From a virus (lineage: Duplodnaviria > Heunggongvirae > Uroviricota > Caudoviricetes), in IMG/VR virus record IMGVR_UViG_3300012940_000021, positions 63,912-127,911 of that record: a DNA stretch of 64,000 bases. One strand, given 5' to 3'. This document shows, one piece after another, positions 18,601 to 51,641 of this stretch; within the stretch, counting starts at the first letter, position 1, and each line of letters begins with the position of its first letter. Below the pieces are notes generated by a model, which had not been told where the DNA came from, did no database searches, and saw only the letters and a list, made by a program, of their open reading frames with translations. The translations under genes and the position numbers were made by a program.

Positions 18601-20075
18601 CCGTCTTCACGCTTGGTGAACTCCCGGTCGCCATTCGTCTGGTGGATGACGTGACCGACTTCAGCCGCGTCGAGCAGCTCCTTGGTGTCGGCTTCGGAGA
18701 GGTCGGGACCGAGCGCGCTGAGGTCCGGCTGCTCAGTGGACTCCTGCGGAGCGGAGGAGTCCCCACCGTCGAGTGGAGAGCCAGCCGGAGCCTTCGGCTC
18801 CTTGCCCTCCTTGGCGATCTTCACGTCGCTGTTGTTGACCGCGATGGCGGACTTGAACGACTCGGCGTCGAGCTGGCCCCCGAACTGATTCGTCCAGGCG
18901 TCGCCCTCCTTGTCCTTGGTCCAGTTGGTCTTGTTTCCAGCGGGCGACGTGTACGTGACCTGAGCGCCGGGCAGCGCCTTGTCGATCCAGTCGTTCGTCG
19001 GGGTGTCGCCCACGGAGACAGGCGCGGGCTTGGAGGCTGCCTCTCCGTCGAGCGGATTCACCGACTTGCCATCGAGCGGGTTGTACTCCGGCTCCTCGGG
19101 AGCACCGATGGAGAGGATGCTCTTCAGGTGCGCGAGGTTGTCCGCGCTGACGCCCTGAGTAGTGCCCTCGTCCTGTCCGTCGAAGGTGCCTTCCGAGTTC
19201 TTCACGAAGGGGCGATCCGCCACCATGACGGTGACCCCCTCGGGAAGCCCTTCGAGCGCCTGCAACGCCTCCTCGAAGTTCATCTCCCCGAAGTTCATCG
19301 CCTCGGTGTTGGCGAAGGTCTCCTCGACCACGGAGATGTCGTCGTCGCTCGTGTCGGGCACGAGGTCACCGGAGTCGTAGAGGTCCTGGAGATCGGCGTC
19401 CTTCAGTCGCACCCCAAGATCCACGTGCTCCCAGGTGTCGTCCGCGAGCTTCTTGAACTGAGGGGTGCCTCGACTGTCCACGAGGGTCGCGCCCACCTTC
19501 AGGGCGTTGAGGCTGACCGACCCGCTCGTGGCCTCGAACTCCTCGACGGAGTAGTTCTCGTCGCCTTCGAAGTCCGGTCCGAACTTGTTTTGGAAAACAG
19601 CGGTGAGAGTCTTCGGGATCTCGATCTCGCCAGCCTCGTTGAAGGCGTGAACGGACCCGTCGGGGGTGACGACGTAGGCCATGCCCGGCTGAGAGGCCGG
19701 ACGGATGAGCTTGGAGCCGTTGGGCGCGGTGTACTTCGCCTTGCCGATGCTGAAGTGCTTGTTGCCCGTGAGCGTGGACTTCTTGATCTTGAGCTTCAGC
19801 TTCGGCTTCTCGGCAGGCTTCGGCGCGTTCTTCTCGGAGGCTGCCTTGCCGGAGATGGTGCCCTGCGACATGAAGCCGCCTGCGGCGCTGCCCGAGGAGA
19901 TGGCTCCCTGCGGAGGGGTGAGGCCCTGGGCTGCGGCCTCGGCGTTCTTGGCGTCGATGATGTCCTTGGTGATCGGAGCGCCGATGGGCAGCCCGTAGAA
20001 CTGAGCACCCTCCGGGGTGCGCACTCGACGGACGGCCAGCTCCAGGACCTGGGACTCGAACTGTTCGACGCTCAC
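9645..20075 (-). CDS. giant multidomain protein (~3,476 aa from GTG at 20075; longest ORF extends to 20273 = 3,542 aa). Candidate virion-packaged 'polyvalent' protein: N-terminal capsid-targeting-like motif, >=10 copies of a ~35-40-aa repeat, two HipA/APH-like kinase catalytic-loop motifs
   Basis: uninterrupted 10.6-kb frame directly downstream of MuF; GTG with GGAG SD after conserved motif+palindrome; motifs HVLDWALDNDDTHPDNLLMT...GGVVGIDKG and AIDAWLANWDVFGLSWDNVL...RIDNGGAL. Confidence 0.8.
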   Translation of the reverse strand: MSVEQFESQVLELAVRRVRTPEGAQFYGLPIGAPITKDIIDAKNAEAAAQGLTPPQGAISSGSAAGGFMSQGTISGKAASEKNAPKPAEKPKLKLKIKKSTLTGNKHFSIGKAKYTAPNGSKLIRPASQPGMAYVVTPDGSVHAFNEAGEIEIPKTLTAVFQNKFGPDFEGDENYSVEEFEATSGSVSLNALKVGATLVDSRGTPQFKKLADDTWEHVDLGVRLKDADLQDLYDSGDLVPDTSDDDISVVEETFANTEAMNFGEMNFEEALQALEGLPEGVTVMVADRPFVKNSEGTFDGQDEGTTQGVSADNLAHLKSILSIGAPEEPEYNPLDGKSVNPLDGEAASKPAPVSVGDTPTNDWIDKALPGAQVTYTSPAGNKTNWTKDKEGDAWTNQFGGQLDAESFKSAIAVNNSDVKIAKEGKEPKAPAGSPLDGGDSSAPQESTEQPDLSALGPDLSEADTKELLDAAEVGHVIHQTNGDREFTKREDGDWDSSTGVVVSTNALLAAIGPEGLADGPQPEQPSPAPAKPKRPKPKDISAINGNSNVAEVQRLLDSAEVGHQIYMVDSEATLTKNEDGTWKSSKTGNDLTSENVAILAPDIGDGPAPELPKRDKPRSTSKLVPGEGDYTELATPGHMQVSTIGDRVLVAFDNGAMVSEYELTDSGDGLAIWSNVDDDEDWFGQVAMNAMVVDGGAEKVYIHATKQSKPLPPEVDEDEPNVNSTDLIWHEDMAPLDILSEESPHYLFPGDYDYTAEATQDDITNAQPGDKILIGYDPDFEENTADGDAPHYEAADLVEKQPDGSWKNLTHPQAGVTEEDLMTAVMASEGEYQPEQLYAFKGNSTKQQPQEAPAADKPLAEMTDVEFSTALVNAPVGSKLIPEEGQVPFRKQENGTWTQGGKKKPVSHGVMYAMRDQLTLVTPTGTQEPEQPADPGEPISGFSPIFNSPDLTVDQKRNHLAIAPTGAQVNLDGVTLTKQSNGQWLSWANGNTYSNEELAQYGAALTAGPAPATQEPIPSHGLITDEGAKKIGGQSGSNPGGLYELPTPDGPAKYYVKKPQTADHGNNEALANALYRELGVNAPEVDVASDGQIYSKIVDGKQDMQARLNDQVWLSKVRRDFAIDAWLANWDVFGLSWDNVLTDKDGNPWRIDNGGALKYRAMGSAKGSDFGPSVTELESYRTGKKAAVFGSDMTYAEELDGAQRIVNLSPERIQEMVSEYGMDESMANTLLARRKYIAEHYSLPLPEESPHLVPDQTSESEAPATDDDLPEGVPTNAVLVNKDIVTHAPKPGDQIFEVTGKGKIITYTKAQDGDEWSALLPSGLDGGMLTLNDIFFAPGGNKHYYVPAPLQSQSAEEQAPWEWGEGHTITSVEDLESLLPGTKLEYTKKDGSKTYYTKLDNGAFLTPGGNVYAASQLSGSAKSQKFTVFSLPALEPNVPSPSEVNEFGYAEGDAITKMAHVNAFPVGQRLAMFDQAGNFLNFVDKTEEGWKAPADDPKWPNLAFTPGDMGDAVAAGNLRYVAPKAPESSFGAKDKQLWPGAPAMSSIQIAEAYKALEEHSSFHVSYGLKALPDSNPLKSAENQESLKVAALNKYPDLKAKPAVIKYLKDSIGIEEGTSVEEENAPKVWIGSKTPKSTGVQGMDGGEFTMSQVQQAIDILESFQGKNFKSELNKKMNALGSLNPNSIVGFDKDKTVTKQKFIDLLKAKLVRTETDIQHPKVKSLEELSGLPVGTVVRWQGTGGIPHTYTKISAAQWTDDGSGNVLGEDSFSGAIDNGFLRIESKPDVLPDYAKTPPALQDKQQEELSKDDGDFSLKVVQDAPVGTKAQNGAPGTDFQMVAVKEGEDHWTIYDAKTGDNLSDNGFGFMNDSEMFNAMQGDWDFSPVENPTLNENPEIVPGKYSSPGGKAYMVVAADGTGVYVNTKGGVSKLTAKAVKTNYDKGMKEYHGMPDDIPSPTAKAAPKKPVVVSDLTPGTYFAGSPQNPKTAVYEVSTDTAKIFKPKTDVTAMTGVKIGGYPTTDWLNAAGVGAKYEVTSSHYEDGEYVQPYEATKHSDGKWHFTDPKTGEEVKPPEEQPNIWATYYSHVLSHGLQDPVEFDKKKVNTLFSKGQLTDKFGMSVLPEGYTGSVFFFGSQTTVPSLMQARQYLDTVTDESAYAMGEKLKSLGVFWQQPLWVKWRAENGFTENTPENAVQALKEAMDGLLSGVDTSTPEANAADLFEWNEMGYAKFPASVAALTVNSYDKNSLGSYIKAASASIGDGKIIGQHLTKMDKWERQKWVAAFKKGDFKALYQIEVSAAAKEGKAHNSGYLHPGYEGSEATHQITWGPAVEGEIPAGEPVEGNWTSPGIEPSLPEIQNYLIKAQMQNPTFLSNAEKRQWVLAHKQGQKEKVDQLSALAQVRKQNGDAALSDAPTWTDDVQPAKSYDHVFENNPDTPWPQGSIWKATPYDVTTDWAKDHFQDPDFKEFYSNYDTSVGGLEWDPSNTDYSTKYKSEEIVAAYFDAKHAAYLEELNKPKYFKVEQIDKGSHEVWLVKDQFDRKYIFKPWNSEDQKARAQMEHKANELARMWGFQSAKTVMATTEDGHEGLIQNFVDNVGSFAGNGDGEIQMETLNEKQLAAIAAEHVLDWALDNDDTHPDNLLMTPSGGVVGIDKGRAFFVYGNWNGISGDASAHTNATLVYTQLYDKIRNGTIDYETAVKAYQGARKAASRIQKSDDAAAEQMVREAVEFRTNWDVPDYMTHFTHRNAPANADQLVKAFLHRKSKLVEQIDQMWDKIFQDAGFGGLPEEPPTVFEEHISGWDEPGVLDKAAETKVWGAAPLHGSASIHNGHSLLWTEQNETGEELHKGQITLGDLAQNKLLAFLQPKAQQVQVNSVNTQPIYLNQAQFPTTNDWKSTITAAGKNVTKNSVDKEYDPDIISAFNSLEQTLLADAAFWKPDLEPEGNADYVEFPSGKRVAPEYLSQYKMMLDHYFTQIGKVKTAISEGGTTNKGDFTVFQGLAPKVEGRIIVSPDGITYTELANGQWLSSKGSEVSVGALPVDPNALPDGWTNNVEAEPQEAVKEVLYTVQSAAGKGGTLNEGGLKVENSKDEGTSGHTGKEYRITLPSGEVIFFRNSTSTNTARSQRGTVSFRLVGPDKEASLARVQSQLELMGLDLTGADETQAELNYWRAMWERVIFTYAESSAPATVKSALKKLKDKKQTVKGPNGENLTDWTLIEGIGLSMSDTEELAFYRSISEEAWGKDRVDSFIAQGKHMPKFNHMDLANPELATGKPYYERIDVDLEQVLKKGHMVAIGNNGKDDSLLRYITSGGMLSTEERLRILGYFKQGASSGSDQGTGGANSVFTRIAHTGASVEFSGSIYGKHVAYWNPSVFTQVDTYSFSGDRFGDRTDQQSQNKYDPLKALTSFTGSSNETMVPNAMSILDHLEIFVFDNAEKRNEAIQRMKALGFAMLRGLPIEDRFVMRVNLQAAIAKVKAQWTK

Positions 20076-20087
20076 GACGCTCCAAAA

Positions 20088-20128
20088 TCTTCTGGCCAGA
20101 AGAATGTCTGCTCTGTGATATCGGCCTC
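20088..20128 (-). promoter_or_regulatory. left-arm conserved motif copy 5 (AGAGGCCGATATCACAGAGCAGACA) followed by 16-bp perfect palindrome TCTTCTGGCCAGAAGA, upstream of the giant gene
   Basis: seen in sequence. Confidence 0.6.
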
Positions 20129-20349
20129 TACTCGTCTTGCCGAACGGCCCCTGGAATCGCCTCGACCTTCTCCACAACCTCCGAGATCTCACCTTCGAGC
20201 AGGAGACCGCTTCGATAGACCGTCGTGGCGTCGAGTCCACCGAAGCGGTAGCTCTTTTCGGTGGTTCGAGCATCGAGAACTACGGCCAGCAGCCCAGCCG
20301 CTGCCGACGGCACCGAGTCGAAGAAGAATCTTGTGGTCGAACTAGCCAT
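20128..20349 (-). CDS. hypothetical protein (73 aa)
   Basis: ORF overlapping 8 nt with MuF stop. Confidence 0.45.
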   Translation of the reverse strand: MASSTTRFFFDSVPSAAAGLLAVVLDARTTEKSYRFGGLDATTVYRSGLLLEGEISEVVEKVEAIPGAVRQDE

Positions 20350-21145
20350 CGTCGCCTCCCCGACGCACGAACGAGATGATTCGCTGGAGGGTCCTCACGA
20401 CGGCCCGGAAGATCATGCCGGGCATCCTCTTCACGTCCTCGGTGGTCATCGTGAGCGCACCTGGCCCTGGAGAGTCGATGTCGAGTGTCTCCAGGGTGTT
20501 CGCCAGGGTCACGATGAGGATGGCGAGGTAGCACTGGCACCGAGGATGGCGAGGAGGTCCGAGCAGGTCCCCGTAGACCTTCAGCCGGTTGTCACCGGTC
20601 GGGAACTCCTCGTGCAAGCCGACCTCGGTGCCGTGGAGTGCGCGGCAGTACTCGCAAGGCGTGTTGTTGACGAAGTTCGCCAGCCAGATCTTGCGGACTC
20701 GGTAGCCGAAGTCCTCCAGCTCGGTGTACGCCTGGATCATCGCGTCGGTGTAGCCTCGCTGGGCTGCGACCCCGGCGCTGTGCTGCATCCGCAGGATGGC
20801 TCGACGGCGAGCCTTCTCGTCGCGGCTGCTCTTCTTGTACTCACGGAGATTCCGGCGCACATCCGCGAGAAGATTCTGGAGGTACTCGGAGTTGAAGATC
20901 TCCGTGGGCGTCCATCCGGTGAGGCCGGACTCTCGGACCGCATGCGCAGAGGCCACGGCTGCGCTCGCTCGGTAGGCGCTGCGCACGATGGCTTCGAGCT
21001 GCCAGCGCACCGACTGCGGGCTGAAGCGCCCCTGATCCCACGCATCGAAGGTCGCGGCAATCTGCTGCCGAACGGTGGCCTCCAGGGCGCGGGCAGCGAG
21101 ATGAGCCTGACGGGCAGCCCGGAGTTGTTCCGCGAAGCTCGCCAT
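20342..21145 (-). CDS. MuF-like head morphogenesis (minor capsid) protein (267 aa)
   Basis: C-terminal PCEYCRALHG...HPRCQCYL cysteine pattern of phage F-like/SPP1 gp7 family; position after portal. Confidence 0.75.
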   Translation of the reverse strand: MASFAEQLRAARQAHLAARALEATVRQQIAATFDAWDQGRFSPQSVRWQLEAIVRSAYRASAAVASAHAVRESGLTGWTPTEIFNSEYLQNLLADVRRNLREYKKSSRDEKARRRAILRMQHSAGVAAQRGYTDAMIQAYTELEDFGYRVRKIWLANFVNNTPCEYCRALHGTEVGLHEEFPTGDNRLKVYGDLLGPPRHPRCQCYLAILIVTLANTLETLDIDSPGPGALTMTTEDVKRMPGMIFRAVVRTLQRIISFVRRGGDDG

Positions 21146-21507: not shown

Positions 21508-23053
21508 CCGCCATCCTCATCAGCTCCGAGTAGGCGTCCAGCGGCTGAGAGAGCTGCATCGCCTGCTCTTCGAAGTCCCGGAGGGCCTGGTCCTCTGGAG
21601 AGGCCGGAGCTGGAGGCCCGCCTGGAGCCGGGGCCACTGGACCGCCAGGGAGTGGCTGACCGTCGGGACCCAGGGCCGGGACGGCTCCGCCTGCGGCAGC
21701 GGCGAGCTGCGCCTGAGCGGCTGCCTGCTCCTCCTCGATCCGACGATCCACTTCGTCGTAGTCGATCTCCAGGCCCATCTCCTCGGCCACGACCTCCTCC
21801 AGCGCCCGCATGAACTCGGGGGTCGCGTTGACGCTCTGACCCGCCGAGGCGAGCTTGTCGAAGGTGGCCGAGATGGCCTGCTTCTGCTCGTCGGTGAGCT
21901 TGCCCCAGGTGAAGGTCGGGTACTTGCCCCCGTCGAAGTTGAAGTCGATGAGCTGCGGGATGATGTAGTGGTTGATCTGGTTGGCGATGTCGTCCATGAT
22001 GGCGCGGAGCATCAGGATGAACATGTCGTCGCCCGGCTGGGCGAAGTTCACCATCGAGCCTTCGCCCTGGCCCGCGCCGGTCTCCTTGTCCATGAAGCCA
22101 GCGAGCATCGACTTCGACATCTGGTTGTTGTGGTGGTTGATGAGGTTCAGGTACTCGAAGGACCCGGCCTCCTTCAGCAGCTCCACCTTGAAGCCGTCCG
22201 GCACCATCATCCACTGGGCCAGGGCGAGGTTCGCCAGGTTCTGCGCGAACTCGCGCTTCGCACCCATCGAGGCGTTGGGCGGAACGGTGCCGATGCGGGT
22301 GCCGACGGCGGCTCGCTGCGCGGCCAGGTGGGCGGTGTAGTAGAGCTTGACCTTCTTGTCGTAGTGGTAGAAGGCGCTCTGGAAGAACGAGACCCCGTAG
22401 AACTTCCGCTCCTCCTCCTGGGCCGCGTAGTAGAAGCAGTACTCCGGCTCGATGTACACGTCGGTGACCTTGCCGCCGTTGGTGGCCCGCTGGCGGATGC
22501 CCGCGAAGCCACCGCCCTTGTCGGTGACGAAGGTGACGGTCTCGCTCGGGCGGTAGGCGAGCTTCTTCAGGGTGATCTTGCCCGCGAGCGGGCCGAACTC
22601 TGGACGCCAGAAGACCTTCTCGAAGGCGGCGAATCCATCGAACAGAGCGCCGAGGAGCTGACTCATGAAGCGGTGGAAGGTGACGCTCATGCCGCCCTGA
22701 GCTGGAGGCGTGTGGAAGACCTGCTCGATGAACTCGGCCTCCTTCTCCCCGCCGTCGGCGGGAACGAAGGTCGCCGTGCTGAGCGCGGCACGAATGGGCA
22801 GCGAGAGGAGTCGGAACAGCGCTCGCGCCTGACCGTCCATACGCCGCATCGTCACGAGCTGTCGGACAGTCGGCCCCATCTCCTCCGACTCGTCGCGGAG
22901 GATCTCCTGAAGCTCCTCGTCCACGCTCTTCTTCAGGCCGACCGAGAACGGACGGAATGGAGTCGTGAACGCGAGGTTCTGATCGACGCCCTGCTCGACG
23001 CCAAGCTCCGGGACCTCGGTCTTCTCCGGCGCAGTTACGTCTTCACCAGCCAC
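21476..23053 (-). CDS. portal protein (525 aa)
   Basis: size and position directly downstream of terminase large subunit; overlaps TerL stop. Confidence 0.7.
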   Translation of the reverse strand: MAGEDVTAPEKTEVPELGVEQGVDQNLAFTTPFRPFSVGLKKSVDEELQEILRDESEEMGPTVRQLVTMRRMDGQARALFRLLSLPIRAALSTATFVPADGGEKEAEFIEQVFHTPPAQGGMSVTFHRFMSQLLGALFDGFAAFEKVFWRPEFGPLAGKITLKKLAYRPSETVTFVTDKGGGFAGIRQRATNGGKVTDVYIEPEYCFYYAAQEEERKFYGVSFFQSAFYHYDKKVKLYYTAHLAAQRAAVGTRIGTVPPNASMGAKREFAQNLANLALAQWMMVPDGFKVELLKEAGSFEYLNLINHHNNQMSKSMLAGFMDKETGAGQGEGSMVNFAQPGDDMFILMLRAIMDDIANQINHYIIPQLIDFNFDGGKYPTFTWGKLTDEQKQAISATFDKLASAGQSVNATPEFMRALEEVVAEEMGLEIDYDEVDRRIEEEQAAAQAQLAAAAGGAVPALGPDGQPLPGGPVAPAPGGPPAPASPEDQALRDFEEQAMQLSQPLDAYSELMRMAGDLLDAVDSN

Positions 23054-24974
23054 CGCTCATCCCCTTCATTCCGATGGGCAACCCGAGGTTGCCCTGCCCG
23101 AAGCTCAGCTCCGCCATCCCGACCAGCGGGGCGACGGCATCCCCCACTTCGAAGAAGCCGACCCCGACTTCTGTGATCTCGTGCTCGGGGTCTTCCTCGC
23201 CTCCGAGGTTGATGGCTCCCACGATAGAGCACGCGAGTGCGTCAGCCTCGTCTTTCGACCCGCCAGGCGGGTGGTCCACCTTGCCCTTGTCGCCCCGAGA
23301 GAGGGCCTCCAGCTCATCCATCAGGCGCTGGCTGAACGGCATGTAGAGGCGCGACTCGCTCGCCACGTCCTTCAGCGTCTTCCAGATGTCGGGGTCCCGG
23401 TCCGTGCTCACCCGGTCCGATTCGATGCCGTGGGAGAGCAGGATCTGGATCGTGTCCGTGCTCTGGAACCCGTCGAAGGTGAAGGAGCCGATCCAGAAGC
23501 CCCGCTTGATGAGTTCGAAGGCGAGCATGCGCGCCCAGCGGATCTGGATCTCGCGGGGGAGCTTCGACCCGTCCTCGTCCTTGGCCGACACGTCCGCCTC
23601 GAACGAGATGGTGAAGTCGTTGCGCAGGATCGGCACCGTCGTCGGCACCTGCACGATGAAGCCGGTCTCGTCCTCGACCTCCGCGATGCGCTCCTCCCAG
23701 CGCTCCACGTGGCTCATGGCGATGCCCGCCCGGTCGCCCTTCACCGCGAGGTCTCCGTGCATGGCGTAGCGAGCGCCCGCGATGGGCTTGAAGTCTGGGT
23801 CGAAGGTGAACACCGGCTCCCAGCCGCGCACCGTCTTGCCGGTCTTGGGCGAGGTCACCGCCGTGACCCGGTAGTCGATCTGGATCGGTTGGTCGGCGCG
23901 GTCCACGGCCTGCTTGAAGATGACCGGGTTGCGGAAGTAGGCGTCGGTGGCTCGGGTCGGCTTGCACTCGTACATCGAGGCAGCCTCGTCCGGGTCCTTG
24001 TCGTAGTCCTCCTGGAAGTCCTCCGGCCCCTTCACGCGAGGGTTGACCTCCCACGTGGCCAGCGGGCCGGACACGTAGTGGATGCTCTTCTCGCCGTACT
24101 TGGCGATGGAGTCGCGGCCCTCCTTGGTCTGCTTCTGGATGGTCGATCCGAGGTAGCGGGGGTAGGAGATGGTGACGCGCTTGTAGGTCTGCGGGAATCG
24201 GGTCGAGGCCGACCCCTTCAGCATCTTCAGGATGGACTCGGCGGAGGTCGATGCCTCTCGGGCGCGATTGCCCAGACCGACCATCTCGTCCTTGGCGCGG
24301 AAGGCGTCGATCTCGTCCGCGACGCCGAGCATGATGTTCAGACCCTCCTGGCTCTCGGCGTCCGAGTGGCCGGAGATGGCGATGATGTGCTTGTCGTACT
24401 CGATGATGTTCTGCTTGGCGTCGGCCTTGTCCTTGAACCAGCCGCGCTTGACCGCCTCTCGCATCGGGGTGAAGAAGGCGTTCATGGCCTGCGCCGAGTT
24501 CGCCGCGATGTTGAGCAGGTGGATCGAGTCGAAGTCCGGCATCTGGAAGTAGCGCTGCGGCGACTTCATGCAGAGCAGGAGATACGCCACCCGGAGCGAC
24601 GAGAACCGGGCGATGGCGTCCTTGCCGGACCCCTTACCCCACTGGAGCGTGATGATGTTCTTGACCGGGATGTCCTTCGCCCAGTACTCCTTGGTCTTCG
24701 GGTCATCGAAGCCCTCGGCCATGAGCGGGTACAGGTCCGGGTAGAAGATTCGCTCGATGTGCCGGACCGCATCCTCCTGCACTTCGGAGAGGTCGATGTC
24801 GGGCAGGTTGAGGAACTTCGAGTCCTGGATGAAGGTGCGCAGATCCACCGGCTCCTCCCAGAAGATGTCCTCCAGGGGGGACGGTGGGGTCCAGACCTCT
24901 ACCTCCGGCTCTGCGAAGGCAGCCGACATCTCCAGCGGGTTGCGGATCAGCCGAGGCCCGAGTTCGAGAGCCAT
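23043..24974 (-). CDS. terminase large subunit (643 aa)
   Basis: Walker A-like LQWGKGSGKD, Walker B GVADEIDAF, C-terminal RNaseH-like nuclease region HGDLAVKGDRAG. Confidence 0.85.
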   Translation of the reverse strand: MALELGPRLIRNPLEMSAAFAEPEVEVWTPPSPLEDIFWEEPVDLRTFIQDSKFLNLPDIDLSEVQEDAVRHIERIFYPDLYPLMAEGFDDPKTKEYWAKDIPVKNIITLQWGKGSGKDAIARFSSLRVAYLLLCMKSPQRYFQMPDFDSIHLLNIAANSAQAMNAFFTPMREAVKRGWFKDKADAKQNIIEYDKHIIAISGHSDAESQEGLNIMLGVADEIDAFRAKDEMVGLGNRAREASTSAESILKMLKGSASTRFPQTYKRVTISYPRYLGSTIQKQTKEGRDSIAKYGEKSIHYVSGPLATWEVNPRVKGPEDFQEDYDKDPDEAASMYECKPTRATDAYFRNPVIFKQAVDRADQPIQIDYRVTAVTSPKTGKTVRGWEPVFTFDPDFKPIAGARYAMHGDLAVKGDRAGIAMSHVERWEERIAEVEDETGFIVQVPTTVPILRNDFTISFEADVSAKDEDGSKLPREIQIRWARMLAFELIKRGFWIGSFTFDGFQSTDTIQILLSHGIESDRVSTDRDPDIWKTLKDVASESRLYMPFSQRLMDELEALSRGDKGKVDHPPGGSKDEADALACSIVGAINLGGEEDPEHEITEVGVGFFEVGDAVAPLVGMAELSFGQGNLGLPIGMKGMSGGW

Positions 24975-29994: not shown

Positions 29995-30637
29995 CCTCGC
30001 GCACCTGCGTCTTCCCGTCCTCCAAGGTGAAGCGGTACACCTTGTCGGCATCTTCCGCGAACTCGGGCTGGTGGGTGACCATGAAGATCTGGACGCTCGT
30101 CTTGTCCACGATCTGGCGGAGGAACTCCCGGAGCGGGTCCAGGTACTCGGCACTCACGTGGGCGAAGGTCTCGTCCAGGATCAGGATGTTCTCAGTCTTC
30201 GTGCCCTTGGACAGGAGCATCACGACGAGCCGGAGCAGGAAGCCGATGGTCGCGGCCAAGCCGCCGCCTCGGGCCTCCATGACGTTGGTCTCGAAGACGC
30301 GGCCCTCCAGGGTCGTGCGGACGATGAACTCCACGGTCGCGGACTTGCCGCGCACCGCCTGGATGATGTGGAAGGACAGCGACTCATCGAAGATCGTCTG
30401 GAGTCCACGAGTGACCAGCTCCTCGATGATGCGCTGCGCCTTCATCTGCCGGTCCTCGCCCAGCGAGTTGAGCAGGATGGTCACCCGCTCCAGGGTCTCG
30501 ATGGTCTCGGCAAGGTCAGCGACCTCGGCCTGAAGCTCCTTGCCGCGCAACAGGGTCGCTCGCATCTCGCCTTGCTCTGCGTCGATGCGACGACGCGCTT
30601 GGCGAGTGCGGATGGTGAGGGTGTCGAGGTCAGCCAT
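29987..30637 (-). CDS. Rad50/SbcC-type ABC ATPase C-terminal lobe only (216 aa): coiled-coil, signature-like motif, Walker B, H-loop; no Walker A lobe
   Basis: GGGLAATIGFLLRL (signature-like), ILILDETFAHV (Walker B), FMVTHQ (H-loop); ATG 3 nt after right-arm motif. Confidence 0.5.
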   Translation of the reverse strand: MADLDTLTIRTRQARRRIDAEQGEMRATLLRGKELQAEVADLAETIETLERVTILLNSLGEDRQMKAQRIIEELVTRGLQTIFDESLSFHIIQAVRGKSATVEFIVRTTLEGRVFETNVMEARGGGLAATIGFLLRLVVMLLSKGTKTENILILDETFAHVSAEYLDPLREFLRQIVDKTSVQIFMVTHQPEFAEDADKVYRFTLEDGKTQVREDG

Positions 30638-30638
30638 T

Positions 30639-30657
30639 TCACGTTGTGATACGTCCG
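30639..30657 (-). promoter_or_regulatory. right-arm conserved motif (GGACGTATCACAACGTGAA) abutting start of 29987-30637
   Basis: core CGTATCAC shared by >=9 sites. Confidence 0.55.
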
Positions 30658-31088
30658 GCTGTAGGAATCGCACAGCGCGTAAGCGGTAATCGCTGGGGGT
30701 TTACAGCTCGGGATGTCTGGTGTATGCGCGCAGGCAGCCCCGCGCTCGCGGGAATCAGATGAAGTTGAATCTCTCCAGGTAGCGATCCAGAGCCTGGGAT
30801 GCTGGATAAGGCCCCTTACCCCACGCGGTGAAAAAATCTCACCCATGGTGGTGACTCGCCCGGTCTCGACGCCGTTGTCGAAGGTGGACGGCCAGGCCCA
30901 GATCTCAGCTCCCGGCTCGGATGCTCCCTGGAGAGCGAGTAGCACTCCAGTACAGCGACCGTCGCCTCCGAGGATTGCCCTTCGAGGGGTTCTCGCGGAT
31001 GGGAGAGGCTGGAGCGCCCGACGGCGCGGCCCCTACTGCTGCACGCAGTGCGAGTGAATGTACCCCCGGAGATGCTCCCTCGCAAGTC

Positions 31089-31130
31089 GAAGCCCCTCCA
31101 CTGCGTGCAGCAGTTCGGTGGAGGGGCTTC
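31089..31130. terminator. 13-bp perfect inverted repeat (GAAGCCCCTCCAC...GTGGAGGGGCTTC) with 16-nt loop in the 750-bp non-coding region; probable bidirectional terminator/boundary of the plus-strand island
   Basis: seen in sequence. Confidence 0.5.
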
Positions 31131-31151
31131 GCGCTGGAAACTGTACCGGAG

Positions 31152-31340
31152 TCAGCTTTGCTGGTCAAACTTCAGCGGCGTATCACTCCGAGAGGGCACT
31201 GCCAGCGCGACCTTGATCCGACGCCGCTCCTTGCGAGTCGGATCGGTGAGTGCGAAGTAGGCCCAGGTCGCAATCGTGATCGGGATCATCGCCGCCGCGA
31301 TCCAGAACGCGACGATGGCGAAGGTCAGGAAGGTGTCCAT
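31152..31340 (-). CDS. small hydrophobic protein (62 aa, two predicted TM segments)
   Basis: ORF with hydrophobic stretches; no clear SD. Confidence 0.3.
   Translation of the reverse strand: MDTFLTFAIVAFWIAAAMIPITIATWAYFALTDPTRKERRRIKVALAVPSRSDTPLKFDQQS
31177..31195 (+). promoter_or_regulatory. right-arm motif in plus orientation (CAGCGGCGTATCACTCCGAGAGG; 16-mer identical to copy at 41066-41083)
   Basis: seen in sequence; only plus-oriented copy, upstream of plus-strand island. Confidence 0.4.
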
Positions 31341-31360
31341 GAGTCTGGCACTCTAGCAGG

Positions 31361-31392
31361 TTGCAATTGTCATCCGCTAGGTATAGTCTGAA
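31361..31392 (+). promoter_or_regulatory. sigma70-like promoter P1 for plus-strand island: TTGCAA-15 nt-TATAGT, overlapping TTGCAATTGTCA element
   Basis: hexamers seen in sequence ~45 nt upstream of ATG 31431 (SD AGGAGGA). Confidence 0.55.
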
Positions 31393-31430
31393 TCACGGTC
31401 AACATTCATTTCCGAAAATAGGAGGACACC

Positions 31431-31796
31431 ATGGCCCAGCTCCCCGAAGGTCTCACCCAGAAGGACATCGACCGGCTCGCGCAGCTCGACGCCGGGATGA
31501 AGAAGCTCCAGGACGAGTACAACGCCCTGAAGGACAAGGTGAAGCGTGCCCATCAGGACGCGGGCCTCACCGGCAAGCAGACGCTCGTCTACCCGAGCGA
31601 CAAGTACGGGACCGTCATCGTGGACCTCAACGAGCAGAAGCGCGTGGACACCGAGGCCCTCATCAAGGCGCACCCCTTCGACAAGTTCCCGCAGTACTGG
31701 CGGATGCAGTTCGACCAGGCGGCGGTGGACGAGACCGTCCTCAACAAGTTCCGCACGAACGTCATCCCGACGCTCTCGATCAAGGTCGCGCAGTAG
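31431..31796 (+). CDS. hypothetical protein (121 aa)
   Basis: first gene of plus-strand island, strong SD. Confidence 0.65.
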   Translation: MAQLPEGLTQKDIDRLAQLDAGMKKLQDEYNALKDKVKRAHQDAGLTGKQTLVYPSDKYGTVIVDLNEQKRVDTEALIKAHPFDKFPQYWRMQFDQAAVDETVLNKFRTNVIPTLSIKVAQ

Positions 31797-31865
31797 GGGA
31801 GGGCACGCCGACAGAAGACGCCGACGAGCACCAAACCCAACGCCAGATCCTTCGAAAGGACATCC

Positions 31866-32846
31866 ATGTTCGTTCTTGCCATCATCGTCTTGCTGCTGGC
31901 CCTCGTGGCCTTCGTCGCCTCGTTCTTCATCCGGGTGACCGGCGAGCGCCGCAACCCCGAGACTCGGGAGTACGAGACCGTCGAGCTGAGGGGACCCACG
32001 CGGTGGACTCGCCTCGGTGCCTTCGGCGGATTCGTCCTCGGCGGTCTCTTCCTGCTGTTCGCGTCCTCCTACACCCAGGACCCCGGCGAGGCCAACGTGC
32101 TCCGCTCGTGGACGGGTGAGGTCGTCGGCTACGAGACCACGCCGGGCTTCCACCTGAAGGCCCCATGGGTGGACACCGTGACCTTCGACATCCGCAACCA
32201 GCGCGCCGTCTTCGTGAGCGAGCAGGTCGCAGGAGAGGGCGACAACGCGGGCGGCGTCGCGGATGGCCCGCAGATCACCGTGCAGGACGCCGAGGGCGTG
32301 ACGGCGAACATCGACATCGCCATCCGCTACAGCATCGACCCCGACGCGGTGGAGGGCATCTACGCCGACTACGGCAACGAGGAGAACCTGCGCTCGCGGC
32401 TCATCTTCAACGACATCCGCTCGGTCGTGCGCAACGTCCCCGGCTCGTTCGACACCATCGAGCTGCTGACGAACCGCACGGATGTCCAGAACGCCATCCA
32501 GGAAGCCCTGGAGGCGCGCTGGGAGGACGACGGCATCATCGTGGAGGACGTGGCGCTCCAGGAGATCCGCTACGGCGAGAGCGTGACCGCTGCCTTCGCG
32601 GCGGCGCAGGAGGCCCAGATCCAGGTCGAGACCGAGCAGGCTCGCCTGGAGGCCGTCCAGGTGTCGGCGCAGCAGAAGGTGGTCCAGGCACAGGCCGAGG
32701 CGGACGCCAACGCCATCCTGAACGCCTCGCTCACCCCGGCCATCCTCCAGCAGCGCTACTTCGACACGCTGCGTGAGCTGGCGGCGGCGGGCAACCTCGT
32801 CATCACCGACGGCACGAGCACCCCGCTGGTGCAGATTCCCCGGTGA
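31866..32846 (+). CDS. SPFH/band-7 (stomatin/prohibitin/HflKC-like) membrane protein (326 aa)
   Basis: N-terminal TM helix, band-7 core (LKAPWVDTVTFDIRNQ...), C-terminal coiled-coil/oligomerisation region. Confidence 0.75.
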   Translation: MFVLAIIVLLLALVAFVASFFIRVTGERRNPETREYETVELRGPTRWTRLGAFGGFVLGGLFLLFASSYTQDPGEANVLRSWTGEVVGYETTPGFHLKAPWVDTVTFDIRNQRAVFVSEQVAGEGDNAGGVADGPQITVQDAEGVTANIDIAIRYSIDPDAVEGIYADYGNEENLRSRLIFNDIRSVVRNVPGSFDTIELLTNRTDVQNAIQEALEARWEDDGIIVEDVALQEIRYGESVTAAFAAAQEAQIQVETEQARLEAVQVSAQQKVVQAQAEADANAILNASLTPAILQQRYFDTLRELAAAGNLVITDGTSTPLVQIPR

Positions 32847-33064
32847 TGAACACCCCGAAGTCCCTCGTGAGGGCGGGTGCGGTCCTGGTGGCCGTGCTCG
32901 CCCTCACGGGCTGTGAGCGCGCCGACGGCTTCACCGAAGAGGCCGAGCGGCAGTACACCATCGACTGCCTGGAGCTGGGCGGCGAACTGCGCGAGATCGA
33001 GGTTCCCGAGGTCAGCGCGCAGTGCGTCTTCACGTTCCCCGACCTCCCCTCCACTGACCAATGA
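32843..33064 (+). CDS. small lipoprotein (73 aa), translationally coupled to SPFH gene
   Basis: signal peptide with LTGC lipobox; ATGA start/stop overlap. Confidence 0.6.
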   Translation: MMNTPKSLVRAGAVLVAVLALTGCERADGFTEEAERQYTIDCLELGGELREIEVPEVSAQCVFTFPDLPSTDQ

Positions 33065-33465
33065 GCACTCGACTCGGACCCCTGTACCACTGGTCTCCAC
33101 GGGACCGGCTCAACAGCATCAAGCGTTACGGGCTGCTGCCCGGCAAGCGCAACATCCGAGGTCCCGTCTGGCACGGGAACGAGACCAACCCGAACATCGA
33201 CAACAACGAGGACATCGGGGAGGGGGAGTTCCTCCAGCGAGGCATCTGCTTCGCTCCAGACCCGGCTACGGCCTGGGACCTGTCGCACCGCATCTTCGAC
33301 GTGCCCGGCACCTACGACCTCTGGCAGGTCGTGCTGGAGGAGAGCGACGAGGTTCACATCCTGCCTCAGTGGGGGGCGCGCATCTGGGAGGTTCGCGTCT
33401 TCAACCGCATCTACAAGCGCCGCCTCATCTGGGTGGGTGAACGCACCATTCTGCCCCCCGACTGA
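33061..33465 (+). CDS. small protein (134 aa) with DarT/ADP-ribosyltransferase-like N-terminal motif; candidate toxin/effector
   Basis: LYHWSPRDRLNSIKRYGLLPG resembles DUF4433/DarT N-terminal NAD-binding motif; ATGA coupling to lipoprotein gene. Confidence 0.3.
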   Translation: MSTRLGPLYHWSPRDRLNSIKRYGLLPGKRNIRGPVWHGNETNPNIDNNEDIGEGEFLQRGICFAPDPATAWDLSHRIFDVPGTYDLWQVVLEESDEVHILPQWGARIWEVRVFNRIYKRRLIWVGERTILPPD

Positions 33466-33473
33466 GGGGTGGT

Positions 33474-33515
33474 GGCAATTGTCATCTATGCGATAGGGTG
33501 TCAATTGCAATCCCC
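33474..33515 (+). promoter_or_regulatory. promoter/operator region P2 with inverted pair GGCAATTGTCA ... TGTCAATTGCAA upstream of surface-protein gene
   Basis: two copies of the TTGCAATTGTCA-family element in opposite orientation; SD GAAGGGAGA before ATG 33553. Confidence 0.5.
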
Positions 33516-33552
33516 GTCTTGGGGAACAAGCTGGTCAACGAAGGGAGACCAC

Positions 33553-35481
33553 ATGAAGTTGAAGAAGATGTTGGCGGCGCTCTGTACGAGCGCGCTGATC
33601 GCAGGTGCTGCCGTCATCGGCATCGCCTCGGCGGCGCACGCCAGCGGGTCGGACAGCCCGACTCCGTACACGGTCGATGCCACCGGCATCACCCTGCCGA
33701 GTGGAGCGACCTTCCCGGACGGCGGTCACGTCAACATCAAGACGAGCGCCGGGGACAAGGGAATCCACTTCGAATCCCTCAACTGGCCCGACGACAACCC
33801 GAAGAAGTACTACATCGGCAAGTCGTTCATCCCGTGGAGCGCCTTCGGTCTGACCGGATGCTTCACGGTGACGTGGGTCCAGATCTCGATGTACAACGAG
33901 CACTTCGGTGATGGCGGGCAGTCGCCCATCCAGGTCGGAGACTGCGGCGAGGAGACCCCCAACAAGGTCTACGTCTGCAAGTACGTCGGGACCCCCGGCG
34001 TGAACGAGACCCTCCAGACGGGGAACAACCCCATCGAGGTCAGCGTGAACGCGATTCCGGGCTGGGACGGCACCACCATCCCGTTCCCCTTCGCGGATGC
34101 CCAGGGCAAGTCCGTGGTCATCGCGTTCTCGGATGGTCCCGGAGGAGGTCAGGGAGACGAGCCGGATCTGAGTGACTGTCCGACTCCCGAGGGTCCTCCG
34201 ACGGAGGAGCCGGAGTGCATCACCGCAGCCTGGCTCATGCCGGGTCCGTGGGTCGAGGGACAGGCCTCCTGGCCGCAGACGCTGATCGGCTTCGAGCCGC
34301 GTGCGTGTGGCGACCTGACCTGGCCGACGCCCGAGTGCGGGATCTCCATCCAGATCGACTCCTACAACGACAACGCCATCACGACGGCGCTCCTGACGCC
34401 GGGGAGGGTCCTCAACGGCCCGAACAACCCCCCGGAGTCGCTCTGGAGCGGATCTCCGGCGTGGCGGTTCGTCTACGGTGGGGATTGCCCGCCGCCCCCG
34501 GTGAACGAGTGCGTGGCCGGTGTCGGTGAGACCTTCACCAACGCCAACCCGATGATCGAGACCCCCGGTGCCAACCTCGGCACCTACACGGTCGAGTACG
34601 TCGAAGGCGCGGTCGAGCTGACGGTGGCTGACGGCAACTCGAAGATCAACCTCTCGTCGGGCAACCCCGGCTTCGCGCTCCACGACCTCGGTGTCCTCGA
34701 CATCCAGGCCACGGATCTGCACGACGCCTCGGACCCGTCGGGTGGCCTCGGACTGAACCTCTACGTCGATTTCGACAACGATGGTGATGTGGACGGCACG
34801 CTCGTCTACGAGGAGGTCTACGAGCAGGGTTCGGAGCAGGATCTCTGGCTGACCGGAGGCTCCGCGCAGTTCGTGAAGGACGCCGCGCCGGACACCAGTG
34901 GGGGCTTCGGCTCCGGCTGGCACGGCACGGCGAACGAGTGGCTGACGGAGTTCCCGGACGCTGAGGTCGTGGACTGGGCTGTCAACCTGGGTCGTTTCAC
35001 GGACTCGTCGTGGTCGCTGACTCAGGTCGGCATCAACTGCGCCGTGTTCGACTACGACCTGTACGTCGAGCCGGAGCCTGACCCCGAGGTCGTGACGCCG
35101 GAGGCCCCTGAGGCCACCGACGTGTGCGGCACCGAGGATGACGGCTACACGATCCCGGAGGACACCGAGGAGTTCGACTACTCGCTGTTCAACGACGACC
35201 GTGAGAGCGGCGTGGGCGAAGTGACGATCATCGCGGAGCCGAACGAGGGCTTCGAGGTCGCCACGCCTGGCGAGGGTGACACCTACGAGGTGGTGGAGGG
35301 CGTCGCGGTTTGGACGTTCGACTTCACCAACGAGGCGTGCCCGACCCCGACGCCGAAGCCCCCGGTGACCCAGGGGCTGGCCAACACCGGAGCTGAGATC
35401 GGGGCTGGCGTTCTCGCCGCCCTGGCCCTGCTGATCGGTGGCGGCGTCGCCCTGGGGATTCGCGCCCGCAAGAGTGCGTAG
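33553..35481 (+). CDS. secreted cell-wall-anchored surface protein (642 aa): signal peptide, Cys/Pro-rich central region, C-terminal LANTG sortase-type sorting signal + TM + basic tail
   Basis: MKLKKMLAALCTSALIAGAAVIGIASAAHA signal; C-terminus LANTGAEIGAGVLAALALLIGGGVALGIRARKSA. Confidence 0.7.
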   Translation: MKLKKMLAALCTSALIAGAAVIGIASAAHASGSDSPTPYTVDATGITLPSGATFPDGGHVNIKTSAGDKGIHFESLNWPDDNPKKYYIGKSFIPWSAFGLTGCFTVTWVQISMYNEHFGDGGQSPIQVGDCGEETPNKVYVCKYVGTPGVNETLQTGNNPIEVSVNAIPGWDGTTIPFPFADAQGKSVVIAFSDGPGGGQGDEPDLSDCPTPEGPPTEEPECITAAWLMPGPWVEGQASWPQTLIGFEPRACGDLTWPTPECGISIQIDSYNDNAITTALLTPGRVLNGPNNPPESLWSGSPAWRFVYGGDCPPPPVNECVAGVGETFTNANPMIETPGANLGTYTVEYVEGAVELTVADGNSKINLSSGNPGFALHDLGVLDIQATDLHDASDPSGGLGLNLYVDFDNDGDVDGTLVYEEVYEQGSEQDLWLTGGSAQFVKDAAPDTSGGFGSGWHGTANEWLTEFPDAEVVDWAVNLGRFTDSSWSLTQVGINCAVFDYDLYVEPEPDPEVVTPEAPEATDVCGTEDDGYTIPEDTEEFDYSLFNDDRESGVGEVTIIAEPNEGFEVATPGEGDTYEVVEGVAVWTFDFTNEACPTPTPKPPVTQGLANTGAEIGAGVLAALALLIGGGVALGIRARKSA

Positions 35482-35488
35482 TTCTACC

Positions 35489-35525
35489 CCTACCGAGAAG
35501 CCCCCTGGAGAGATCCGGGGGGCTT
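35489..35525 (+). terminator. stem-loop (AAGCCCCC...GGGGGGCTT) just after surface-protein gene
   Basis: seen in sequence. Confidence 0.5.
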
Positions 35526-35672
35526 CTTGGCGTGCGTGTCAATGTCCTCTGGACGGGGGACTTGTACCTGTAGTCTTCCTGGGAGTTGCGAAACCTCCGG
35601 CTCCTGCGGCGTCATAGTGGGGCTGGTCATCAGTCCCCTCGGTAGAACACAGGCCGACGCTGGGAGAGAAGA

Positions 35673-35954
35673 ATGGCCGATCTGACCGTCGAGAACATGT
35701 TCACCGAGCGGAGCTACGCCATCGAGGACCGGCTCCCCGTCGAGGCGCTCTCGGCGCTCGACCGCAAGCGGATGCTGGTCCACGTGCTGGCCGACATCAC
35801 TCAGAAGATTCTGAGCGCTCCAAGCGCCAACCCCGTGGGCCTCGCCATCACGGTCACTGTGGTGCCCGGCATCTGCCCTGAGCGCAAGCCGGATCTGCTG
35901 GTGACGGCGACGTGCCCTCAGTACGAGCTGGACGACTCGTTCTTCTCGCCCTGA
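35673..35954 (+). CDS. hypothetical protein (93 aa), last plus-strand gene of island
   Basis: SD GAGAGAAGA; complete ORF. Confidence 0.5.
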   Translation: MADLTVENMFTERSYAIEDRLPVEALSALDRKRMLVHVLADITQKILSAPSANPVGLAITVTVVPGICPERKPDLLVTATCPQYELDDSFFSP

Positions 35955-36181
35955 TCGAACAGCTCTGGAGCCAGTTCTTCGAGCGTGACGATCTCCACGT
36001 CATCTGGAGTACGCCCGTGCCGCTTGATGGCGATGTGGGCCGCGATGCCCACGCCAAGGAGCACAGCCGCGTAGGCTGCGCCGACGATCACGAATGCGAG
36101 CACCACGGCACCCCCTTTCGAGTCGGATAGTACGCCGAGAGGTTCCTGAGAACGCCCTCCCCCGAAAGGGTGTCACGAAAC

Positions 36182-36502
36182 TCAGTTGTCGAGGATGTGC
36201 TCGACCGCGAGCCACTTCTCCGTAGCGCTCGATCCCATGGTCCGCAGGGTGCGGATGGCGGCGAGCTTCAGCTCGGCCTGGTCTCGGTCCGGGAAGATCG
36301 CGTCCATGAGCGCCACGCGGTCGGAGTAGTACCGGTAGATGGTCGCCACCGAGCAGCCCGCGAGGGCCGCGACCCCATCGAAGTTGAAGCGGTCGCGGCC
36401 CACGTCCTCGTAGTGCTGTCGTGCAGCGGCCAGGATGGCCTCCACGCGGGCCTTGGCACGTCCCTGGACCGGAATGGCACGCAGGTTGGTATCGAGGCTC
36501 AT
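36182..36502 (-). CDS. TetR-family transcriptional regulator, short (106 aa)
   Basis: HTH signature GRDRFNFDGVAALAGCSVATIYRYYSDR; SD GAGAAGGAGAAGG. Confidence 0.7.
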   Translation of the reverse strand: MSLDTNLRAIPVQGRAKARVEAILAAARQHYEDVGRDRFNFDGVAALAGCSVATIYRYYSDRVALMDAIFPDRDQAELKLAAIRTLRTMGSSATEKWLAVEHILDN

Positions 36503-49636: not shown

Positions 49637-49645
49637 CTTGCTCTC

Positions 49646-50089
49646 CTATTCGAAGGTCACTGGAACTCGTCGCAGCCCGAGGATTCGGGCGACGAGCAAC
49701 CGATGGTGCCCGTCCCAGACTCGGCCATCTGGACCGAGCGACACTGGAGATGTCATGCCGTCGCGGGAGACCTCCCCCATGAGCCACACGATCCTCTCGG
49801 AGCGGTTCTCCACGAGCCAGGCGAAGGTCTGCTCCCACCCCAGCTCGTCGCCGTCCTTGTAGCGACGCAGGAGGTTCTCCACGGGCATGGTCTGCGGATA
49901 CCGAGGCGGGAGCGGCTTGCCCGTTGGGTAGAGGTCCTCGACGCGCACATAGCGGTCGGGGTTGACTGCTTGGTCGAGCCGGACGTGGGCATAGCCGCTC
50001 GGCATCAGCCGAACGAACGTGACCTCTAGGTCCTTCCGGCCCGATTGGCCGCGCCAGATGTATCTCTGACCGTCGATCAACTTGAACAT
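49646..50089 (-). CDS. ParB-like nuclease domain protein (147 aa)
   Basis: DGHHRLLVARILGL (ParB/Srx DGxHR motif). Confidence 0.55.
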   Translation of the reverse strand: MFKLIDGQRYIWRGQSGRKDLEVTFVRLMPSGYAHVRLDQAVNPDRYVRVEDLYPTGKPLPPRYPQTMPVENLLRRYKDGDELGWEQTFAWLVENRSERIVWLMGEVSRDGMTSPVSLGPDGRVWDGHHRLLVARILGLRRVPVTFE

Positions 50090-50304
50090 CAGAGGTCCCC
50101 CCAATCCGTGTACGTGACCGTCTTGGTTCTTTTCTGAAAACGTGCGTCCGGGTACTCCTGGCGCATGTCCTCCAGCCACTCCTCGACGGTAACCCCCTCT
50201 GGCCACTCAGGGCTGTCAATAGCGGGGGTCGAAATGACCGGCCCCCCAGGCCCCTTGCGGATGACGCGGTACTCGACCTCTTCTTCAGTCCAGTTCGCCA
50301 TCAC
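50089..50304 (-). CDS. hypothetical protein (71 aa)
   Basis: complete ORF. Confidence 0.4.
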   Translation of the reverse strand: MMANWTEEEVEYRVIRKGPGGPVISTPAIDSPEWPEGVTVEEWLEDMRQEYPDARFQKRTKTVTYTDWGDL

Positions 50305-50403
50305 GCATCCTCTCGTGGACGCGAGCCATGTGCCTGCCGAAGGCCAGGATGGTGCCAGCCAGCGCGACGACGACGGCTCCGAGGACGGCGAGGATGGCCT
50401 GCA

Positions 50404-50781: not shown

Positions 50782-50783
50782 GG

Positions 50784-51041: not shown

Positions 51042-51055
51042 GTGGGTGATACGCC
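51038..51055 (-). promoter_or_regulatory. right-arm motif (GGCGTATCACCCACGTGA) preceded by terminator-like hairpins
   Basis: seen in sequence. Confidence 0.55.
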
Positions 51056-51060
51056 GACCG

Positions 51061-51621: not shown

Positions 51622-51641
51622 GGGAGCAGGGTATCGCTGGC

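Follow-up and report, generated by a model that had tools for sequence, protein, structure and literature searches.

Why does a tailed phage that encodes nearly all its genes on one strand carry a small group of genes on the other, and what might these genes do? The question is raised by a block of six genes at 31431-35954 of a 64,000-nucleotide stretch (the window), which corresponds to positions 63,912 to 127,911 of the IMG/VR virus record IMGVR_UViG_3300012940_000021. The original prediction described here an SPFH membrane protein, a lipoprotein and a small protein resembling the DarT-type ADP-ribosyltransferases (ARTs), encoded as one operon and followed by a sortase-anchored surface protein, and took the whole for a moron island that could serve superinfection exclusion, anti-phage defence or remodelling of the host surface. 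On the basis of observed domain identities, targeting signals, synteny and motif enrichment, we lean towards considering the block a recurrent accessory cassette of Magritte-like large Microbacteriaceae siphophages, in which envelope remodelling would be combined with a separate cytoplasmic modification. The kinds of protein that it encodes are known; what is new is an unannotated minimal ART family, the fact that in large actinophages it is met time and again close to sortase-anchored proteins, and an RNA candidate next to the block.

In a scan of GC content by codon position, nearly all genes of the window were assigned to the minus strand, the exceptions being the six genes listed in Table 1, which encode proteins of 121, 326 (SPFH), 73 (lipoprotein), 134, 642 (LANTG) and 93 amino acids (aa). 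Re-inspection of the gaps in the window gave no further convincing plus-strand gene, and the claim that this is the sole block on the opposite strand is thus sustained. The four proteins originally described are all present, but the first (121 aa) and last (93 aa) genes had been overlooked; position 31361, given as the start of the block, is a promoter motif, the first gene starting at 31431. The GC content is 62-71% throughout the window and 65% in the genome.

The block proteins were found on a 128,478-bp metagenomic contig. The window's terminase (23043-24974) shares 64% identity with its counterpart in the nearest isolate, Microbacterium phage Magritte, and about 32% with those of Streptomyces phages; taken together with the size of the contig, this indicates that the window is half of a Magritte-like phage genome. 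Pfam recognises in it a major capsid protein, a Mu-like protease, an amidase endolysin, phosphoesterases and a PD-(D/E)XK nuclease. Magritte is a 133-kb singleton siphovirus with a circularly permuted genome (PMC11663251). When 30600-36200 was compared at the nucleotide level with 50,697 phage records nothing matched, and relatives therefore had to be sought by protein.

Six related phages share a recurring set of genes, whose products are a homologue of the 121-aa protein, a surface protein anchored in the wall or membrane, and an ART-like protein. In our seven-genome set, made up of the window, Magritte and the metagenomic or metagenome-assembled relatives L004, L008, L009 and L010 (L005/L006 are near-copies of L004), these three are present in 7/7 genomes. 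The position is also kept, between a clamp-loader/SbcC-like operon and TetR/phosphoesterase genes, the block standing beside the clamp-loader/SbcC-like operon in each of the four metagenomic relatives; the synteny that the original prediction had left to be checked therefore exists. The ART gene adjoins the surface-protein gene, or is one gene away from it, in five of the six relatives, with a one-base overlap in two. Most of the other genes in the relatives' blocks encode exported or membrane proteins, such as the transmembrane proteins of L004 and the 184-aa lipoprotein of L009. The 121-aa protein, with homologues in Magritte and in L004, L008, L009 and L010, belongs to a group of 32 homologues found, all of 120-121 aa; its AlphaFold2 model is poor (predicted local distance difference test, pLDDT, 66) and gave no fold match. 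The 93-aa protein has counterparts in L008 (57% identity), L004 (49%) and L010 (34%). Searches of Pfam, NCBIfam and PHROGs returned nothing useful for either protein.

The 642-aa protein shows all the elements expected of the sortase-anchored LANTG protein that had been predicted, namely a Sec signal peptide (MKLKKMLAAL...AHA, followed by SG) and a C-terminus LANTGAEIGAGVLAALALLIGGGVALGIRARKSA in which LANTG precedes a hydrophobic stretch and the charged tail RARKSA. LAXTG is the motif of actinobacterial class E sortases, and most homologues of the protein end in LAXTG or LPXTG. In the same three databases its only match of use was to NCBIfam NF058582 (Microco_LAVTG), at 22.6 bits (E 8e-5) and below the cut-off of 27; no sequence match was found among solved structures. 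Residues 25-128 are common to about 26 proteins, including Magritte gp249 (61% identity) and Demequina proteins, and residues 130-215 to about 95 proteins from Microcella, Nocardioides, Demequina and many metagenomes, mostly with LAXTG/LPXTG signals or DUF11 repeats; residues 307-509 are common to the surface proteins of L008 and L010 and to Salinibacterium 'cell wall-binding repeat' proteins. From this mosaic of shared modules, the 642-aa protein looks like a host-type wall-anchored protein that has been taken up and reshuffled by phages.

Prophages of Firmicutes offer a precedent, since the staphylococcal SPbeta-like prophages encode the LPXTG surface proteins SasX/SesI. In both cases a phage-encoded, Sec-exported protein carries a C-terminal sortase signal for the host cell wall. 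However, the signal found here is the actinobacterial LAXTG, the protein is a mosaic of actinobacterial surface modules and the carrier is a 128-kb siphophage in which lysogeny genes were not found. The recurrence of sortase-anchored host-like surface proteins in large actinophages that have no recognisable lysogeny genes suggests that surface remodelling during infection is commoner in Actinobacteria than annotation shows.

The identification of the 326-aa protein as an SPFH protein is secure: Pfam Band_7 (PF01145) matches residues 72-263 with 89.7 bits, well above the gathering threshold of 23.6 (E 3e-25), phrog_200 matches with E 2.5e-51, and the closest solved sequence is that of prohibitin-2 (E 2e-13), prohibitin-1 being also among the closest. 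The identity is 61% to the L008 homologue, 43% to that of L004 and 33% to Magritte gp126. Two hydrophobic segments at about residues 2-22 and 49-68, with an Arg-rich loop between them, suggest an HflK-like topology in which the SPFH domain would lie outside the membrane. The protein resembles HflK/HflC and prohibitin in its Band_7 domain, its N-terminal membrane anchoring and its C-terminal helical tail, and differs from them in being phage-encoded and in having neither a partner paralogue nor an NfeD gene. 'Band-7-like membrane proteins' have been annotated in actinophages with no function stated.

The 73-aa protein proved to be a lipoprotein, as announced, with a signal peptide MMNTPKSLVRAGAVLVAVLALTG followed by Cys and a lipobox L-T-G-C (...AVLALTG-C, residues 20-24); the signal was read by eye, with [LVI][ASTVI][GAS]C as the lipobox criterion. 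Its matches to lipoprotein and spanin families are weak, and the related phage blocks contain no homologue. As for the ATGA overlaps reported between the three genes, the one between the lipoprotein and 134-aa genes is real (33061-33064), whereas the SPFH and lipoprotein genes are coupled but not literally by ATGA, the overlap being GTGA if the start is GTG 32843, or TGATG if it is ATG 32846. The notion of an SPFH-lipoprotein-ART trio as a conserved unit does not survive comparison: an SPFH gene lies in the block of only 3/7 genomes, being outside the block in Magritte and absent from the blocks of two other relatives, and the lipoprotein has no counterpart in them.

The 134-aa protein, which starts ...GPLYHWSPRDRLNSIKRYGLLPG as quoted in the original prediction, has 85 homologues in a 90%-clustered collection, and an exhaustive search enlarged its family to 387 representative clusters of mostly stand-alone proteins of 105-145 aa. 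Among 44 sequences 13 columns are invariant, including His10 and Glu110, which the AlphaFold model, a confident one (pLDDT 86; predicted template-modelling score 0.78), places on strands 8-13 and 108-113, respectively. In a fold comparison the model scored 9.2 and 8.2 with Tpt1/KptA, 7.6 with a DUF952-type protein, about 7 with heat-labile and pertussis toxins, 7.0 with E. coli DarT1, 6.7 with M. tuberculosis DarT, 5-6 with RES/ParT/MbcT and 4.6 with AcrF11. The ART-like call is thus upheld, and from this fold we infer an enzymatic activity. Three Tpt1 entries head the list when the family profile is compared with PDB sequences (E 0.011), DarT1 following at E 0.77, and the BFVD matches are small uncharacterised phage proteins, a DarT and a putative RNA 2'-phosphotransferase.

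The proposed kinship with DarT, the single-stranded DNA thymidine ADP-ribosyltransferase of DarTG (DUF4433), is not supported, the structure being closer to the NAD lobe of Tpt1/KptA. Pfam gave no DUF4433 match for the 134-aa protein (E up to 1), and no model at all for the 44 family members (E up to 10). The protein is about 70 residues shorter than DarT, and no DarG macrodomain was recorded beside the ART-like gene in the contexts read, its neighbours here being the lipoprotein and the surface protein. With the phage ADP-ribosyltransferases whose targets are host or defence proteins (T4 Alt/ModA/ModB and the anti-CRISPR AcrIF11) it has no known sequence relationship.

The comparison with Tpt1/KptA, for which both the lobe boundaries and an essential four-residue tetrad have been described (PMC6333775), is more informative. 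Residues 7-32 alone align with residues 102-127 of E. coli KptA, residue 7 corresponding to residue 95 of archaeal Tpt1 and His10 to the NAD-lobe His, which indicates that the 134-aa protein corresponds to the NAD+ lobe alone. Nothing precedes residue 7, and the N-terminal winged-helix RNA lobe is missing together with the three tetrad residues that it carries; the fourth, an Arg, is R30 and is not kept in distant family members. Furthermore, the family differs from Tpt1/KptA in a variable insert of 25-30 residues and in the invariant Glu110, which, judging from secondary structure, would lie on the strand of the catalytic Glu of transferase-type ARTs. A trimmed RNA-repair enzyme of KptA/Tpt1 type, unrelated to the envelope genes, has to be considered in the light of this structural proximity; it would use NAD+ to remove or cap RNA phosphate ends, working alongside the 2H/LigT-type phosphoesterase of the phage. 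We regard this as unlikely, since the family keeps an invariant Glu that probably sits where the transferases have their catalytic one, and the ART-like gene does not stand beside the 2H gene.

Beyond the Magritte-like group the ART-like gene occurs alone; its carriers are mycobacteriophages of clusters F and H and a Leucobacter prophage, in which it lies at the edge, and it is always annotated as hypothetical. Across these contexts it has no conserved partner. Remote family members were otherwise uninformative, one of ten proteins having a domain fusion (HTH_3), and among 58 records carrying a homologue there was none from the mycobacteriophages with published overexpression screens. Two PHROGs of 'unknown function' match the protein, and Pfam and NCBIfam give nothing useful. 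This minimal stand-alone ART family, which has no Pfam model, is spread through actinophages, among them the laboratory-tractable mycobacteriophages of clusters F and H. Takeover of host transcription and the disabling of defence proteins are known roles of phage ARTs, which makes a new family with a testable His/Glu pair a concrete lead.

Regulatory signals suggest that the block is part of a wider programme of the phage. Ahead of the first gene, TTGCAA-15-TATAGT occupies 31361-31387, where TTGCAA-17-TAGTCT is an equally good reading, and L004 and Magritte likewise have promoter-like hexamers in front of the first gene of their blocks. The hexamers described as host-type promoters are thus found in their places, but a consensus scanner calls neither promoter. 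The operator-like elements fared better: allowing one mismatch, the palindrome TGNCAATTGNCA was found five times against 0.56 expected, and the block's two promoters account for three of these copies. In L004 and L008 a similar motif precedes the gene of the 121-aa homologue and also the surface-protein gene, the latter having two copies spaced 25 bp apart in L008 and one copy in L004. Further copies, TTGCAATTG(C/T)(T/C)A or TGGCAAATGCCA, occur at 38644 (a related copy, intergenic), 48491 (intergenic) and 59393. Two of them stand in short gaps ahead of minus-strand genes, and this points to a regulon that spans the genome or to a promoter class common to these sites and the plus-strand block. 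The 106-aa TetR-type protein beside the block, with homologues near the block in L004, L008 and L010, is a candidate binder of the palindrome. The presence of the motif elsewhere in the genome makes it probable that the block is co-regulated with other phage genes, an arrangement more easily reconciled with early lytic than with prophage expression, and one that would speak against an insulated moron. Terminator hairpins had also been predicted, and a strong 17-bp one does lie 3' of the LANTG gene (-36 kcal/mol, z -6.0; 0/200 shuffles fold as well).

Lysogenic-conversion genes, expressed from a prophage and changing the host surface in the manner of the Firmicutes LPXTG proteins, would account for several of these features. 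The LANTG gene is flanked by a promoter-like motif and a strong terminator-like hairpin of its own, the surface protein is built of host-like adhesin modules, and homologues of the 134-aa protein are found at the edge of the Leucobacter prophage and in cluster F mycobacteriophages, which are temperate. Magritte itself forms turbid plaques, but no integrase or repressor has been identified in it (PMC11663251), and we found none in its 89-125 kb region or among ten mid-size open reading frames (ORFs) of the window, the window being half of the 128-kb contig. Since the operator-like motif at other intergenic sites suggests in addition co-regulation with lytic genes, expression in lysogeny, one of the options offered originally, appears improbable to us.

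We therefore return to the accessory cassette. In the mechanism that we propose, host RNA polymerase would transcribe the block divergently from the rest of the genome, using host-type promoters overlaid by a palindromic operator that is probably read by the neighbouring TetR-type protein of the phage. The SPFH protein would enter the membrane by its two hydrophobic segments near the N-terminus and, like other SPFH proteins, assemble into a ring or cage microdomain, the small lipoprotein would be acylated on the outer leaflet, and the 642-aa protein, exported by the Sec pathway, would be joined to peptidoglycan by a host class E (LAXTG) sortase and display its host-derived domains. Acting together at the outer face of the membrane and at the wall, the ring, the lipoprotein and the anchored protein would alter the surface of the infected cell, masking receptors, blocking the entry of competing phages or keeping progeny off infected cells and debris. 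Superinfection exclusion or surface remodelling would be a plausible outcome. Separately, the 134-aa enzyme would bind NAD+ and either ADP-ribosylate a host protein or nucleic acid or hydrolyse NAD+.

Several points weigh against this proposal. The band-7 gene of Magritte, gp126, is on the main strand, 50 kb from the block, and the variable content of the block means that no shared function is required. No block protein resembles a characterised superinfection-exclusion protein. The promoters were read from the letters alone, the first having a spacer of 15 nt in the earlier reading and the consensus scan being negative, and the membrane topology of the SPFH protein was deduced from the positive-inside rule alone. 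A bolder version is doubtful in our opinion. In it the minimal ART, as an NAD+-dependent enzyme, would join with the sortase-anchored protein and the 121-aa protein, and where present with an extracytoplasmic SPFH cage, in one new phage system that rewires the infected envelope and excludes competitors; if the genes did act as a unit, the target of this minimal ART family, which many actinophages carry without annotation, would be of a new kind. Both Magritte and its host can be obtained, so that the homologues gp248-gp250 are open to direct experiments.

An anti-phage or abortive-infection system carried by the phage, in which SPFH protein and lipoprotein would sense membrane perturbation and the ART-like protein would be a DarT-like toxin effector, is very unlikely: the ART fold is indeed common to the 134-aa protein and the DarT, RES and ParT toxins, the three genes are translationally coupled in the window and the HTH_3 fusion recalls Xre-RES pairs, but PADLOC-DB v2 (E up to 0.1) yields 0 families for the six proteins, the SPFH gene is in so few blocks, the lipoprotein is unique to the window, the ART gene occurs without either gene in Magritte, L009, L010, the Leucobacter prophage and mycobacteriophages, and no recurrent antitoxin, macrodomain or immunity partner lies beside it. 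With the trio not conserved, PADLOC negative and the ART gene alone elsewhere, the block is best described as a variable accessory region rich in envelope proteins and not as a fixed machine.

Table 1. Positions of the block genes, signals and flanking elements in the window, and counterparts in related phages
Feature	Position	Strand	Remarks
Conserved protein, 121 aa	31431..31796	+	always first gene of block; strong ribosome-binding site AGGAGG
SPFH/band-7 protein (prohibitin/HflK-like), 326 aa	31866..32846	+	two N-terminal hydrophobic segments, C-terminal coiled-coil-like tail
Lipoprotein, 73 aa	32843..33064	+	lipobox LTG-C; start overlaps SPFH stop
Cytosolic ART-fold protein, 134 aa	33061..33465	+	invariant His10 and Glu110; ATGA-coupled to lipoprotein gene
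Secreted modular surface protein, 642 aa	33553..35481	+	C-terminal LANTG, hydrophobic segment, RARK tail
Conserved protein, 93 aa	35673..35954	+	last gene; converges on and overlaps minus-strand ORF
Palindromic motif TTGCAATTGTCA	31361..31372	+	overlaps -35 of block promoter
Palindromic pair TGGCAATTGTCA and TGTCAATTGCAA	33473..33510	+	26 bp apart, with TGGCAA-15-TAGGGT; upstream of LANTG gene
Terminator-like 17-bp hairpin	35493..35530	+	after LANTG gene
TetR-type helix-turn-helix protein, 106 aa	36182..36502	-	adjoins block on right; Pfam TetR_N 30.5 bits (cut-off 24)
Single-pass membrane protein, 62 aa	31152..31340	-	divergent from block; GC at third codon positions (GC3) 0.81
13-bp-stem hairpin	31089..31130		immediately downstream (minus strand) of 62-aa ORF
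Structured RNA candidate, ~270-300 nt	30775..31075	-	flank, outside cassette; between 62-aa ORF and SbcC-like ATPase gene
Block in Magritte		reverse	abuts spacer; gp250 (121 aa, 55% to 121-aa protein), gp249 (877 aa, LAATG-anchored), gp248 (116 aa, 58% to 134-aa protein)
Block in L004 (94 kb)			113-aa homologue, Band_7 (43%), two transmembrane proteins, ART-like (58%), transmembrane protein, 574-aa LAQTG protein
Block in L008 (134 kb)			113-aa homologue, Band_7 (61%), 417-aa LASTG protein; ART-like across spacer
Block in L009 (130 kb)			121-aa homologue, 184-aa lipoprotein, 393-aa LAATG protein, ART-like with one-base overlap
Block in L010 (124 kb)			124-aa homologue, 625-aa anchored protein, 81-aa protein, ART-like
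RNA element, other sequences	L002:135-430; L004:5110-5410; L009:5437-5735; L040:1128-1425; L008:7640-7935; L010:4640-4950; L129:200-495; L130:835-1065		

The spacer to the left of the block (30674-31430), described as a 750-bp non-coding region, turned out to hold a 62-aa transmembrane ORF and about 270 nt of conserved structured sequence. L004 and L008 have short transmembrane ORFs in the corresponding place, of 68 and 66 aa, respectively. The 13-bp-stem hairpin noted earlier is genuine (-32.6 to -35 kcal/mol, z about -5) and is likely the terminator of the 62-aa ORF. The end of the Magritte record falls in this spacer; a physical genome end was considered and ruled out, Magritte being circularly permuted and its record starting at gene 1.

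The structured element is conserved in nine distinct phage sequences: the window, Magritte, L004, L008, L009, L010, the 135-kb IMG/VR contig L040 and the metagenome contigs L129 and L130. In seven sequences RNAalifold gives 34 pairs with a pairing of 94%, which falls to 35-51% if the partners are shifted by 1-3 columns; compensatory changes affect 10 pairs (1-4 in the shifted controls) and the covariation score is 0.444 against at most 0.119. The element folds better on the minus strand (-37.5 against -27.4 kcal/mol), where one loop is GUCG, UCCG or UUCG and where several G-U pairs correspond to A-C mismatches on the plus strand. Two blocks are invariant, GGATARRGCCCCTTACCCCA and GCCCCTAC in plus-strand reading. 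No Rfam family matched, even in a permissive search, nor did ARAGORN find a tRNA or tmRNA. A metagenome scan for the motif returned one real homologue, present twice (L129/L131), and a shorter real variant (L130); L125-L128 were rejected as REP-like chance matches. We consider the element a candidate for a new structured RNA, or else for a sequence acting in cis on the operon downstream of it.

A perfect 16-nt inverted repeat, ACTGCTGCACGCAGTG / CACTGCGTGCAGCAGT, lies at 31035-31050 and 31099-31114 and overlaps the 13-bp hairpin, which makes the two structures mutually exclusive; the repeat might act as a switch, with the RNA element as one alternative and the 62-aa ORF's terminator as the other. 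On the right-hand side of the block, another 62-aa transmembrane ORF (35918-36106, minus strand) overlaps the 3' end of the 93-aa gene by 37 nt, implying converging, overlapping transcription.

Elsewhere in the window, two regions of about 3 kb (49637-52768) and about 1.8 kb (59813-61642) have no ORF with the strong codon-position GC signal usual in this genome, and no tRNA was found anywhere in the window, Magritte having 26. Furthermore, a single minus-strand ORF of 3,542 aa (9645-20273), with clean coding composition and a GC3 of 0.92, has on one side a weak MuF-like gene (20342-21145), which is itself downstream of the portal gene, and on the other the genes for endolysin, protease and capsid. 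Its searches against Pfam and PHROGs gave no domain except a sub-threshold PI3/PI4-kinase match. Given the 260-nm tail reported for Magritte it seems too long for a tape measure, and it may be a giant head-packaged or polyvalent protein.

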